From NCBI RefSeq assembly GCF_044324875.1, contig NZ_CP172185.1: a DNA stretch of 64,000 nt; one strand, 5' to 3'. Position numbers: made by a program. Positions 43,301 through 49,300 of this stretch are shown here, one piece after another. The stretch is from Escherichia coli. Lineage in GTDB: Bacteria > Pseudomonadota > Gammaproteobacteria > Enterobacterales > Enterobacteriaceae. Within the stretch, counting starts at the first letter, position 1. Each line of letters starts with the position of its first letter.

Positions 43301-46300
43301 AACCGCCGCAACGAGATGATGGCGTGCGTTAAGGGAATGGAGCTTATCGCACAGGAACGCGGCGACGTGGCCTTCTTCGTCACGGTCACAGCCCCGTCTC
43401 GTTTTCACAGCGTCACCGACGCAGGCACGCTGAACCCGAAATACAAAGGCGCAACCGTAAAGGACGCCAGCGACTATCTGGTTTATAACTTCTTCGCCTC
43501 CGCCCGCAAACTCATCAAAAAAGAGAAGCGGGGCTGGTACGGCATTCGCACCGTGGAGCCTCACCACGACGGCACGCCCCACTGGCACATGCTGGTATTC
43601 ACAAGCCCTGAGAACGAAGAGCGCATCACGGAAATCATGTGCAATGCCGCCATTCGCGAAGACCGGGCAGAGCTGGGCGACGACATCACCCCGCGCTTCA
43701 AGTGCGAGAAGATAGATCCCGAAAAAGGCACGCCAACCAGCTACATCGCCACCTACATAGGCAAAGGCATTGACGCCGCTGCATTCGGCGACACGGATCC
43801 AAAAACAGGTAAACCGCCCGTTGACCACGAAAGCGGAAAACCTATGGCGGACACCGTGGAAAACGCCGTCGCCTGGGCGCGCCTGCATCGCATTCGCCAG
43901 TTCCAGTTCTTTGGCCTCCCTTCCCGTCAGGTGTGGCGTGAGTTCCGCCGCCTTGCCGGACAAATGGCACGCAACCCGAAGGGGCCGCAGGCACTGACCA
44001 ACCCCAAAGCCGACGCCCTCCTTGTTGCAGCCGATACGGGGTGTTTTGCCAGCTACATCATGCATCAGGGCGGTGTGCTCATTCCCCGTAGTGAATATCT
44101 GGCCCGCACAGCCTACGTCACCGCAGAAGAGCCGAACAATTACAGCGAATTCCCCGAGCGCATTTACGGTATCCGCATGCCGGAACTGGGGGAGGACTTC
44201 ACGTTATGCACCCACCCGGAAGAGTGGAAAATCGTCAGAAAGGAACCGGAACCAGACAACCGCACGGGCGAGGGTTTTGACCTTCAGGGCGGCCCCGCCG
44301 CCCCTTGGACTCGTGGCAATAACTGTCACCCTGACGAAAAAACAACCAACAACAGCACACAAACCGGACAGTCAGAGTGGGCAAAACTGCCCCCCTTACC
44401 CCCATCGTCGGACGGTTTTGTGAGCTGGTTTAAGTCGCTTAAGAGGCCGGACAGGAAAAAACTACAAAGATTGCTCAAAAAACGCACCGAAGAGAGTCGC
44501 CAGAACGCCAGCGGCGGCACCGACACACCCACCGACACCATTAACCTGGGCGTTGTGCTGCCGGAACTGCCGGAAATCGTGCAAGTCCGCCGCGATCTGG
44601 AAGCGCTGGGCGCGGACTTCCCCGAAGCAATGGCCCATTCCGTCTTTATGGGTGCCCGCGTTCGTCTGGGTAACGGTCGCACCGTTCACCGCGACGAGCA
44701 GACCGGGCGCATCACCGTCACCAGTCTGCAACCGGAGGCGAAACCATGAACCGTTATCATTGTGTACTGCCGCGCCACTACTTCGGTCAGATTATGCGCT
44801 CGCGTATTCCGGCGGTCACGCTGCGAAACCTGAGCACGGTACCGCAGCCGGGCGATGAGCTGGAAATCGCCGTAGCAGGCCCTGACCGTTCAGCCAGCTG
44901 CGTGACCGCCGACGTGCTGAACGCCGTGCCCGTAGGTGGTGACTGGCTGGTTGCCATCCGCTTCCGCCAAGACCCGTTCGCACCTGAACCGCTCACCCCC
45001 GCAGGCCGCATCATGCAGAACTGGCGGGATGAAGGCGCGAAGGCGAACTGCGAAAAACTGATTAACAGGATTGCCACGACAAACCGACATGCCGCGCTGG
45101 CGCGCCGGATATACCCCGCAAAACCGACACAACCAACAGGAGTAAAACGCCCATGAAAAGAATCGCCGGAACCCACAGAGACACAAAAAGACACCAAAAG
45201 CAGCAAAGACACATTGAATAAACGAAAACTGGTGATATGATTTGTTCAAAGATGTTATGATTTATTCATAAGTAACCTTTCAGGCTTAAGTTATGAATAA
45301 ACAGGATTTTGGACTTGATACCCTTTTGAGTATGCATGGTTACCAGCATCACATGGATAACGGGTACTGGTGGAAAATTGAGGCTTACCGGGTAAGTCCA
45401 AGTCCGTTCAGACCTCACGGGATACGCTACAATCTGACGTTACATGACCGCTACAATTCGCGTGTGTTTGGTATGGACAACGCACATGGAATAAAACCGC
45501 CAAAGAAGGGAAGATTTACAGGAAAGTTAACTGTTTATGATCATGTGCACCGTACCCCGGTGGATAAAGGTTATCCCTATGAGTTTGTATCCGCAGAACA
45601 ATTGTTATCTGATTTCTTTGATAACGTTGATCGGCTCATTAACGAAGTTACAAAGGGGAAAGCATGAAAGCCCGCATCGGGATCATCCCGGAAAAAGTCC
45701 TGCGTCAGCGCCTGATTGAAATTGCCAAGGGGGAGCGGAAACCACACCCCGACGAGCCAAGGGTATGGTTTTCATCCATCAATGCGGCGGGTCAGGCGCT
45801 GAGCAATGAAAATATCTCCCTTCTTCGTCTTATGGATGAGGAGAAACCGCAGACCATGACCGAACTTGCGGAGTTATCCGGCAGAAAACTGAGTAACCTG
45901 TCTGTAACCCTGAAAATGCTGAGCAGCTACGGTTTTGTCAGTCTGGAAAAGAAAGGAAATACCGTACACCCGAAGGCACTTTTTACCGATTTTGAAATCA
46001 TCGTTGATCCGTCCGTCGGTTCAGTACATCGCGCCACCGCCCGCCCCTGAAGTGTGCAATAAACAGCCCCGGTCGGGGCTGTTTTTTATTCCAGAATCAG
46101 CTGTTCAGGTGTGCAGCCGTACAGTCTGGCAAGGCGCTCAATATTTGCCCTGCGCGGGCGTTCTGTTCTTTCGAATTCGGACACGGTAGCCTGCCTGATA
46201 CCCAGCGCATCCGCCACCTGCTTTTGCGTCATTCCGCGATAGATTCGCCACGCCGCCTGCATGGTGCAGCCACGTTCCGAGAGGATGTTGACCACCTCGT

Positions 46301-49300
46301 TGGGATACAGCGTATCAGGCGATGCACTCGGTTCGTTCTGGACGTCCTCGTAGAGTTCGTCAAGGTCGCTGTCTCCTGCCAGTTTTTCAAACAACGCCAC
46401 TGGCAGAATGACGGATACCCTGTTACCCGCACCGTCAGTAATAAACTGAATCTGACTCATTTGCCCCTCCTGCTAAACATCGGTTTATTTTTTAATTTGC
46501 TGCCGGTGATAAAAAACGGCGGGTCGCCCCGCCTTAGTATGTTGTCGAGGTTCTCCGCTGAATACGGAGGATCCTGATAACCACTATCTGCCCTCCCTCA
46601 ATCGTGAACCTGACACGGTAATGATTTACCCTGAGTCTGTACTCCCCGCCCGAGTCAGTGAGCTTTTTAATATCCAGATTCTGGAACTTCGGATAGCCAT
46701 AAAGCGCGTTAACTTTCTCGCGTAAGGATTTCTGATCCCTCGCTGGCAAAACCCGTAAATCTTTGATTGCCCGAGGGGTCCACATGATTTCAGTCGTCAT
46801 AAACACACCGGAAGCAAATTATTAAAGAGCCGTGCCCGCTGGCACACCTTAAATATAGGTTTTAACCCCTATATTGTCAAACAAAATCCCTATATCATGA
46901 AGTAAAAAAGCACCTCCCGCGACCTCCCTTTCCGGTGCACGAAAGTGCACAAATTTGCACAATTTTTTTGAACGACTTTTTGCCCTTCCGGCCCGTGTGG
47001 CGTCTGGATCCGTCGGGGATCCGTGCGTGCACGAAAAAAGGCCTTTTTCTGCGCGCAGGTGACGGGGGAACAGCCCGCGTTTCAGGGGGTAAATAGCATT
47101 CCCTGAACGATGTTGCAGTGACACAACAGAATGGCTGTATTTCTCACGCTGAGCGTGAAAAAGACGTAAGGGCTTTTGATTTGATGGGGTGAAAGATAAG
47201 GCCGTCAAAATCGCACTGAGGCAGCGAGAATATGTCGTCAGAGTTGCGGGGTTGCGTAAGCATCCGCCCGGCGATGATGGCTACAGGGCTGGAGATGTTG
47301 TGAAATTATCTGAAGGAATAACCAGCTTGCAGGAGAACCCGGGCAAAGTCAGAATAGCGGCAGGCATCAACTCAAAAGAGGATAATGTCATGAGCCACTT
47401 TAATGATTTATGCCAGATCAATCGTGAAGCTGAAGAAAAACGCGCTGAGGCAGCTCAAATTTTGCGGGATGAAGCGGCAAGGCTGATTGATTTCTATGAA
47501 GAATGGCTGGGGCTTCCATCCATGTACTGGGAAGACGATGATGGCGACCTGCACCGCTACGTGGAGACAGGCTTGCCATGTAAGACAGCGGCGGATTTTA
47601 GTCCTCTTTCAGTCCACAATATCGCATCTGCACCAGACAATATTTTCCGCATGGCCGTACGAACCTGGGTAAAGTCATCTGACAGCAGCTACCCGGTAAG
47701 CGTGGTTATTGCACTTGAATTATATTCAGTAGATGCGGAACGGGTGTCTCTGAGAGTCCGGGTGGAAGACGATATTTCTGTTCGCGTATTTATCAATAAA
47801 CCCAGCGAAGAAGCCTGGGGCGATGTTGTTATGCACATGAAAAAGCACATCGCTAATCACCTGAAAAAGCGAGCGCCATCAGCACTTCGTTAAGCAGAGC
47901 TGGAGAGTCGGGGCATAAATTTTTTATGCCCCGGCGAAGCAGCAGACAAGCGAAGCGCGTCAGGATATGGGCCGGGTGTCTAACAGTGCGTAAGGGTTAA
48001 AACGGATCACCTCTTCGCCCAGCCAGTCGTTGACGTGTTTCATTGCTTCCATGACGGGCATCAGTTCGTTAATGGCAAACACACGGGCTGCCTTCTCCAC
48101 ATCCCCGAATGACCCCTTCTCACCCGGCATGGCCCCCATCAGCTGAGGTGGCACGCGGTGCACAGCCAGCACGTCATCACGCGATGCGGCCTTGACGTTC
48201 ATGAACTCATCCTTTGCGGTGATTTGCTGAAACGGCAAAATCTGTACGCCATCCTTACCACCTCCCGCCGCGTGGATGAGCAGATTTTTAAACGCCCCGC
48301 CACCACGCGCGCTTTGCAGCGTTTCCCGCAGTTTTTCCATGCTTTCACGGTCAACCTGCGCCGCACCGATGTAGACAATACAGCCCGCGTGTGAGCCGTT
48401 ATCGTAGTAGAGCTTGCGGAAGATATCGGCGGAATGTGACAGGCTGGCAGACAGCAGGCCGCCCAGGTAATCCGGCATCCCGTAAATCTCCTGGTTGATA
48501 TCAGGATTCATCAGGTGGCATATCGTCCCCTCACGAAAGCGGTACTCTTCCTGTCCTTCCTGTATATACCACCATGATTTCATATCGCTGCCACGTCGCA
48601 TGTATTTCGCCAGCGCCCGGCGCAGGGCCAGCGGTTCGCCAAGCATGTTGCGCCGCAGCTCAAGACAGGCATTACCGAACACAAACCAGTCCATCGCCAC
48701 CCCGGCGAACTCCTGGCGGGACAGCAGAGGATGTGGAATATAGCAGCCCAGCAGCACATTACGTTTGAAGCTGAGCGCCGACTGGTGCCAGGACGTCTGG
48801 CGGGCAGCCCGTGCCAGTCCGTACCAGTCAACGGGCGTTTCAAACCACCGCCCGTTGTCGGCGCAGTACATGCTGTCCAGCAGGTCGGCCCCTGACAGCC
48901 GGTAAGGTCCTTCAAACGTGAAGGCACTCAGTGTCGGGTCGCTTCGCAGGGAATCCGCAAGGCTGCCCTGCGCTGCGCGGGCGTTCGTACGTCGTTGTTT
49001 ATTTTTTCTGCTCATCAGAACTCCGTAACACTGAAGGGGGCGGCATCATGTTCACCGCCGACAGGTTCGTTGATAACGGCCAGCATGGTGGCCCATGCAA
49101 GATCGCCATGGCTTACGCCTCTTGCGCGATCTGTTTCGTAGGTGATAAATCCGGCCTGCGTTTTTGTTTTGCGTACCGCGTTAAAGGCGCTCACCAGTTC
49201 GCGCTCGCTGCGGTCGTACTCCCACCGCCCGGCGCGCATGAGCTGCAGCATCTTCAGAACCAGCGTGCGCTTTGATGACAGGGTGAAGGTGTAGGGAATG

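Follow-up and report, generated by a model that had tools for sequence, protein, structure and literature searches.

The analyzed DNA (hereafter, the window) is a stretch of 64,000 nucleotides (nt) from the Escherichia coli contig NZ_CP172185.1 (assembly GCF_044324875.1). According to the reading of its open reading frames (ORFs), the minus strand of positions 46086-46895 holds a small toxin ORF followed by an ORF for a helix-turn-helix (HTH) protein. Taken as a whole, the results indicate that the locus is very probably an intact, ordinary RelE-type toxin-antitoxin (TA) pair in a variable hotspot of a P2-like prophage. The following genes and signals were assigned to it, listed from the promoter side:

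46888..46895, minus strand: upstream operator half-site ATATAGGG (predicted), a direct repeat 21 bp from the promoter-proximal half-site
46852..46880, minus strand: sigma-70-type promoter TTGACA-17-TATATT, 11/12 matches, the best sigma-70-like site of the surrounding 3 kb
46852..46875, minus strand: palindromic operator AATATAGG-GGTTAAAA-CCTATATT (predicted), with N8 between the arms, covering the promoter spacer and the -10 hexamer; shuffle test P=0.007
46832..46845, minus strand: leader hairpin GTGCC-AGCG-GGCAC at the predicted 5' end of the transcript
46820..46830, minus strand: BoxA GCTCTTTAATA, a perfect match to the NusB/NusE consensus GYTCTTTAANA, ending 19 nt before the toxin ATG
46534..46800, minus strand: RelE-like toxin gene, 88 aa plus stop, with ATG at 46800
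46511..46533, minus strand: G+C hairpin GGCGGG-GCGA-CCCGCC (46533..46518), then G+T6, starting at the base after the toxin stop; intrinsic-terminator-like
46466..46471, minus strand: consensus Shine-Dalgarno sequence AGGAGG, 5 nt before the antitoxin ATG (read from the sequence)
46086..46460, minus strand: antitoxin gene, 124 aa plus stop, with a RelB-like N-terminal domain (~residues 1-55) and an XRE/Cro-type HTH (~residues 66-122)
46061..46084, both directions: bidirectional terminator hairpin, common to the pair and a convergent DUF6516/HVO_A0114 cassette

Both ORFs are intact and are separated by a gap of 73 bp (46461-46533). These coordinates bear out the toxin-first order, the 124-aa HTH partner and the 73-bp gap reported in a preliminary description of the same DNA. 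The toxin length of 90 aa given there corresponds to a longer ORF, 46806..46534 (minus strand), begun at the alternative GTG 46806. The ATG at 46800, which gives 88 aa, was preferred as the start because homologues start with MTT-I-W and the Prokaryotic Genome Annotation Pipeline (PGAP) begins the gene at this ATG. The Shine-Dalgarno sequence of the toxin gene, read from the sequence, is weak (GGTG); together with the perfect one of the antitoxin gene, this should favour the antitoxin in translation.

Profile searches placed the toxin in the RelE/ParE superfamily. It passes the Pfam family ParE_toxin (PF05016) with 37.4 bits at a cut-off of 23 (residues 7-81) and matches phrog_1213, "RelE-like toxin", in the PHROGs database (E 1e-14); PGAP and COG2026 likewise label it RelE. 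Its best sequence match among solved structures is M. jannaschii RelE3 (E 4e-4), E. coli RelE is a weak match, and no others were found. An exhaustive search with the toxin sequence returned 288 representative clusters at E <=1e-3 and just 9 at <=1e-10, and the toxin subfamily therefore appears to be small. A word-indexed protein search with the toxin had reached E. coli copies only, and its relatives were recovered by exhaustive and antitoxin searches.

Two of the available labels would fit a different activity, namely a ParE-type gyrase poison in a module working like ParDE or PaaA2-ParE2. The sole Pfam family passed by the toxin is called ParE_toxin, though it covers RelE and ParE alike, and the orthologous protein of Citrobacter koseri was termed "ParE-like" by Baniulyte et al. 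(PMC5725501). The sequence hits to solved structures are, however, to RelE only, and PHROGs, PGAP and COG2026 all say RelE. Residue conservation points in the same direction. In an alignment of 78 sequences (77 relatives and E. coli RelE), toxin residues R83 and Y88 are invariant and aligned to R81 and Y87 of E. coli RelE, while R55, R57 and R62, aligned to RelE K54, R56 and R61, are conserved in at least 90% of the sequences. The Arg/Arg/Arg/Tyr catalytic set of RelE is thus invariant or nearly so across the family, which argues against a ParE toxin.

3D modeling of the toxin using AlphaFold2 gave a structure with a predicted local distance difference test score (pLDDT) of 88 and the beta-alpha-alpha-beta4 layout of RelE. 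In a Foldseek search of the Protein Data Bank, the top eight hits of this model are all RelE structures (E 1e-5 to 2e-3), including 1wmi, 3bpq, 2khe, 9g12, 3g5o and 4fxe. The RelE fold matches span the proteins of P. horikoshii, M. jannaschii, T. thermophilus, M. tuberculosis (RelE1 and RelE2) and E. coli. ParE structures (8c24, 5cw7 and 7r5a) also occur among the hits, as weaker matches (E >=0.01), so that the E-values of RelE are two to three orders of magnitude better than those of ParE, and a gyrase poison is considered decidedly improbable. Judging by the catalytic-residue alignment and the modeled fold, the toxin is predicted to be RelE-like rather than ParE-like. The broader "RelE/ParE-like" assignment of the preliminary description was correct at the level of the superfamily, as the PF05016 profile search showed, and is refined to RelE-like by the residues and the predicted fold. 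A fold unrelated to RelE/ParE was named there as an argument against the assignment; the predicted fold matches RelE structures best. Such a toxin would act as a ribosome-dependent mRNA endonuclease using R55/R57/R62/R83/Y88.

The second protein of the pair has a two-part structure. Its C-terminal half contains an XRE/Cro-type HTH (Pfam HTH_3, residues 72-121). For the N-terminal 65 residues, the Pfam RelB-like family PF18506 was matched in 17 of 18 diverse members of the family, with a best E of 4e-8. In an AlphaFold2 model of a toxin-linker-antitoxin fusion (predicted template modeling score 0.70), the N-terminal part of the antitoxin consists of a beta-hairpin, a helix and a strand (pLDDT 73-79). 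A fold search with the fused model showed that the C-terminal part resembles the HTH of the 434 Cro/SinR type and that the toxin part resembles RelE; a profile of the antitoxin N-terminal domain matched no solved structure. The RelB-like N-terminal domain would bind and neutralize the toxin.

The antitoxin had been described as "HigA-type". This holds as an analogy of gene order and HTH class; the Pfam and NCBIfam hits of the pair include no HigA, HigB or Gp49 family, the antitoxin matching only the generic HTH_3/HTH_31/HTH_26, and the N-terminal domain is RelB-like. HigBA systems (Proteus Rts1, E. coli K-12) share with the window pair the toxin-first order, a RelE-superfamily toxin, an XRE-type HTH antitoxin and a palindromic promoter operator. 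They differ from it in the HigB, Gp49 and HigA profiles that the window pair fails to match, and the HigB and HigB2 structures (4mct, 7awk and 5jaa) are weak fold hits only. The layout of the window antitoxin, with its presumed neutralizing N-terminal part, recalls the C-terminal HTH antitoxins of V. cholerae HigBA2 and of MqsRA (HigA2 and MqsA). We know of no BoxA or post-toxin hairpin described for HigBA-like or MqsRA systems. RelBE systems (E. coli K-12 RelE; archaeal aRelE/aRelB, 1wmi and 3bpq; M. tuberculosis RelBE1/2) have in common with the window pair the toxin fold, the catalytic Arg/Tyr residues and the RelB-like antitoxin N-terminus. In contrast to RelBE, the order of the window genes is inverted (toxin first), the antitoxin has a C-terminal XRE HTH, and the RelE_StbE cut-off is missed. 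The DNA-binding domain of E. coli RelB is a ribbon-helix-helix.

Full-length homologues of the antitoxin with 51-79% identity were found in Klebsiella, Kosakonia, Morganella, Pectobacterium, Citrobacter, Enterobacter, Xenorhabdus, Serratia, Erwinia and Ewingella, and more distant relatives on viral contigs. At ~45 loci, in many Enterobacterales and on viral contigs, the antitoxin homologue is preceded at a distance of 34-186 nt by a RelE-family ORF. At least 11 close relatives are located between the P2-type portal and gpA genes in other genera; other copies occupy plain chromosomal sites without nearby phage genes (Morganella, Ewingella and Citrobacter).

Inheritance of the pair together across ~45 loci in several contexts speaks against regarding the HTH protein as an independent prophage regulator, the small ORF as a decayed remnant, and the terminator as the border between two unrelated units. 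That arrangement would explain a terminator-like hairpin with a U6 tract between the genes, as well as the purely regulatory names given to the HTH protein by PHROGs and PGAP ("transcriptional regulator" and "helix-turn-helix domain-containing protein"), and four loci of the comparative set do carry the HTH gene without a detectable toxin ORF. It is nevertheless very hard to credit, given that both ORFs are intact with conserved catalytic residues, that the HTH protein begins with an antitoxin-like (RelB-like) domain, and that the promoter-operator precedes the toxin gene and not the HTH gene, with no clear promoter in the 73-bp gap. The four loci in question (L023, L025, L049 and L056) encode full-length or nearly full-length antitoxin homologues, with no upstream toxin ORF >=50 aa detected, and may represent orphan antitoxins or disrupted toxins.

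As for the promoter region, the heptamer ATATAGG occurs in five copies in the window (both strands), and three of them are inside 43 bp: 46853-46859 (plus), 46868-46874 (minus) and 46889-46895 (minus). This clustering is far beyond chance. The ATATAGG/CCTATAT inverted repeats of the preliminary description are real (the pair 46853-59/46889-95), and the perfect 8-nt palindrome 46875..46852 is more compact and says more about function. In most relatives, the promoter is likewise close to consensus (TTGACA-17-TATAtT), and its spacer holds a perfect palindrome (arms of 6-13 nt). Relatives also have one or two copies of the half-site upstream. The half-site varies by clade together with the recognition helix of the HTH (helix 3):

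half-site ATATAGGG: recognition helix Q-TVSEFE
half-site AATACGATT: recognition helix QSTVSQWE
half-site TATAAG: recognition helix QAALSQIE
half-site ATAAGA: recognition helix QS--SQAE

An autoregulatory operator would be expected to show just such covariation of half-site and helix at a conserved palindrome position. The Xenorhabdus relative has the two genes in reverse order, and there the same ATATAGGG promoter-operator stands before the antitoxin gene, as an operator recognized by this HTH should. From this comparative covariation, we infer that the palindrome is an autoregulatory operator. The strong sigma-70 promoter would drive the leader, then the toxin gene and then the antitoxin gene, and the operon would be repressed by dimeric antitoxin, whose XRE HTH may bind the ATATAGG palindrome over the -35/-10 spacer and the upstream half-site. 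The toxin-first type II TA module proposed in the preliminary description is thus upheld by a PF05016 toxin, an HTH_3 partner, synteny at ~45 loci and a promoter palindrome that co-varies with the HTH recognition helix.

The Xenorhabdus bovienii locus (L008, 2100-3900), located in an N15-like element with a TelK protelomerase, is the one relative with the antitoxin first. Here, the toxin gene comes after a terminator and an A+T-rich spacer, no BoxA is present, and a Gp49/HTH_37 (HigBA-like) pair lies directly downstream. Two viral contigs each carry two diverged copies of the module (L024 and L040 on one, L025 and L041 on the other) with different operator half-sites.

The leader contains an element absent from the preliminary description, the BoxA at 46820..46830, which is the sole consensus match in the window (0.10 expected). 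By the published definition, a BoxA of this kind is a perfect GYTCTTTAANA located <=50 nt upstream of a start codon (PMC5725501), and the window element agrees with it. BoxA is perfect in 22 of the 31 distinct relatives and has one mismatch in three more, always lying 6-23 nt before the toxin ATG. Most relatives also have a small hairpin before BoxA, with stems of differing sequence. Before the match to the published BoxA consensus was recognized, the leader motif had been considered as a weak attenuator, an anti-Shine-Dalgarno sequence or an epsilon-like translational enhancer; these options were dropped. Rfam contains no family matching the leader or the post-toxin hairpin. In the minimum free energy fold of the toxin transcript (46455-46848, minus strand), the BoxA segment GCUCUUU pairs with the antitoxin Shine-Dalgarno segment AGGAGGG ~360 nt away. 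This long-range pairing was set aside as probably generic complementarity, since any pyrimidine-rich BoxA pairs with any Shine-Dalgarno sequence.

For the "ParE-like toxin" CKO_00699 of C. koseri, a boxA C4A mutation or deletion of nusB raised expression of a CKO_00699(R82A)-lacZ fusion (Baniulyte et al. 2017, Nat Commun 8:2027, PMC5725501). The BoxA sequence, the 23-nt distance and the Arg at position 82 of the C. koseri locus of the comparative set (L009) fit the published description of CKO_00699, and the two are probably the same gene. Since L009 shares these three features with CKO_00699, the window module belongs to the CKO_00699 family. The toxin and antitoxin of L009 are 59% and 72% identical to the window proteins; the locus is also toxin-first, its TTGACA-17-TATATT promoter contains the same ATATAGGG palindrome, its BoxA is in the corresponding position, and a hairpin likewise follows the toxin stop. 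It differs in being chromosomal, outside the P2 hotspot, and in a hairpin without the U6 tract. The CKO_00699 study tested BoxA/NusB repression only (PMC5725501). By homology, Nus factors can be expected to regulate the E. coli copy: the leader BoxA would recruit a Nus complex containing NusB/NusE and lower expression, as was shown for the C. koseri orthologue.

The hairpin that begins directly after the toxin stop was also missing from the preliminary description. Per-sequence folding found an equivalent hairpin in 30/30 distinct relatives, with a free energy of -8 to -22 kcal/mol. The stems differ in divergent clades, and GNRA loops are present in 21/30. RNAalifold applied to a MAFFT alignment of the region gave three pairs only, with divergent sequences out of register, and was replaced by folding of the individual sequences. 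Among the relatives compared, the U6 tract after the hairpin is found in the E. coli module only; it gives the predicted E. coli hairpin the canonical shape of an intrinsic terminator between toxin and antitoxin. With this acquired tract, the hairpin should terminate part of the transcripts. The hairpin could most obviously act through such partial termination, or as a barrier on account of which the mRNA of the two cistrons would differ in stability. BoxA and the post-toxin hairpin would thus be two RNA-level elements tuning the toxin:antitoxin ratio. Relatives with a gap of 166-186 nt (L004 at ~3860-3935, L012, L013, L015, L016, L018, L019 and L027) have a mini-ORF of 16-19 codons between the toxin hairpin and the antitoxin gene. 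It has a good Shine-Dalgarno sequence, encodes a basic, loosely conserved peptide (e.g., MPKNISSGLRSRIRIS) and is absent from the E. coli window.

The module is flanked in the window by the following P2-type genes:

42260-44749: replication endonuclease (gpA-like) ORF, 829 aa
47960-49015: portal (gpQ) ORF

A 951-bp region containing the module is 98.6-100% identical in 9 of 5426 complete E. coli genomes; megablast of this region against a collection of phage records gave no match. In E. coli LH50-c, the identical stretch sits between the P2-type replication endonuclease gene and the portal, terminase and capsid genes. The tin/old position next to cos is a hotspot of anti-phage systems (Rousset et al. 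2022), and the same position is the P2 defence hotspot #1 (Vassallo et al. 2022). The location in a prophage hotspot claimed by the preliminary description is correct and can be made more precise: the locus, between the gpA-like endonuclease and portal genes, is P2 hotspot #1. The supplementary table of Rousset et al. 2022 lists the same arrangement (WP_029400438, WP_029400439 and WP_029400441) with the labels ParE_toxin and HTH_3/HTH_31/HTH_26. A literature search by accession number gave no main-text hits. In comparison with the known cargo of P2 hotspot #1 (tin, old and the systems of Rousset 2022 and Vassallo 2022), the window module occupies the same position and is outside the experimentally validated systems.

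The module is most probably a type II TA operon carried as cargo of P2-like prophage hotspot #1. Several observations weigh against this interpretation or parts of it. The toxin is under the curated cut-off of the NCBIfam model TIGR02385 RelE_StbE (22.6 vs 27.9 bits), and K52 of E. coli RelE, also counted among its catalytic residues, falls on a variable position of the alignment. The RelB-like score of the window antitoxin itself is under the Pfam cut-off (17 vs 27 bits). In PADLOC-DB v2, no model matches the toxin, and the antitoxin has generic HTH hits only. A terminator between toxin and antitoxin seems contrary to an excess of antitoxin, and a promoter scan found no internal promoter for the antitoxin gene, the best candidate by eye having 8/12 matches.

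With regard to its biological role, the RelE-type pair could exclude phages by arresting growth, or else help to retain the hotspot and prophage. The chance is a little below even that it is mainly a selfish addiction or stabilization cassette, which keeps the hotspot cargo or the prophage, or simply persists, and gives no protection against other phages. The same pair does occur at phage-free chromosomal sites (Morganella, Ewingella and Citrobacter), whereas at least 11 close relatives share the P2 position in other genera, and this position houses many validated anti-phage systems. Rarity in E. coli (9/5426 complete genomes) and the lack of a PADLOC model for the toxin fit a selfish cassette, as does the fact that the arrangement was catalogued by Rousset et al. 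outside their tested systems. Against it, phage defence has been demonstrated for TA systems whose toxins target translation (PD-lambda-2 and others; Vassallo et al. 2022), and the pair adjoins a second TA-like cassette.

This cassette is convergent to the RelE-type module, consists of two plus-strand genes (45293-45667 and 45664-46050) and shares with it the terminator 46061-46084. PGAP names its first gene "DUF6516 family protein" and its second "HVO_A0114 family putative DNA-binding protein", which suggests a member of the TumE-TumA translation-targeting TA superfamily (Durairaj et al. 2023). A Pfam scan gave no DUF6516 hit for the first gene, and the order with the putative toxin first is unlike the predominant described order.

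A more specific role can be proposed from the combination of BoxA, a weakly translated toxin, a hairpin/terminator and a strongly translated antitoxin, which might act as a sensor of the host transcription elongation machinery; we regard this as unlikely. With Nus-modified RNA polymerase, little toxin would be translated, and transcription would continue into the antitoxin gene. A phage that hijacks or depletes Nus factors (as in lambdoid N-type antitermination), or that shuts off host transcription, would leave unmodified polymerase to halt at the hairpin; the antitoxin supply would then collapse and RelE would arrest translation. The absence of BoxA from the antitoxin-first Xenorhabdus relative would fit a function of BoxA linked to the toxin-first order. 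If true, such sensing would be an abortive-infection trigger of a kind undescribed for type II TA systems.

The family, its annotation, the hotspot and even BoxA were known before, and the E. coli module is a further member. It adds one more intact TA cargo to the P2 defence hotspot, beside a second TA-like cassette, and is a reasonable anti-phage candidate. The comparative set provides material on the co-evolution of HTH antitoxins and operators, with distinct half-sites accompanying distinct recognition helices. It also bears on the question of why a whole RelE family keeps BoxA and the post-toxin hairpin, the BoxA link having been published for one orthologue only.

Two other ORFs of the hotspot, 47300-47893 and 44746-45156 (both plus strand), have no match in Pfam, NCBIfam or PADLOC and correspond only to phrog_5091 and phrog_14984 of unknown function. 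Just upstream of the TA promoter, at 46927-47041, there are clusters of short repeats, namely GTGCAC(G/A)AA in three copies and GGATCCGT and ACCTCCC in two copies each. Similar TTGTGCA repeats are present at the same position of a P2-like prophage of Klebsiella (L002, ~3480-3515), and the repeats possibly belong to a phage cos or terminase-binding region.

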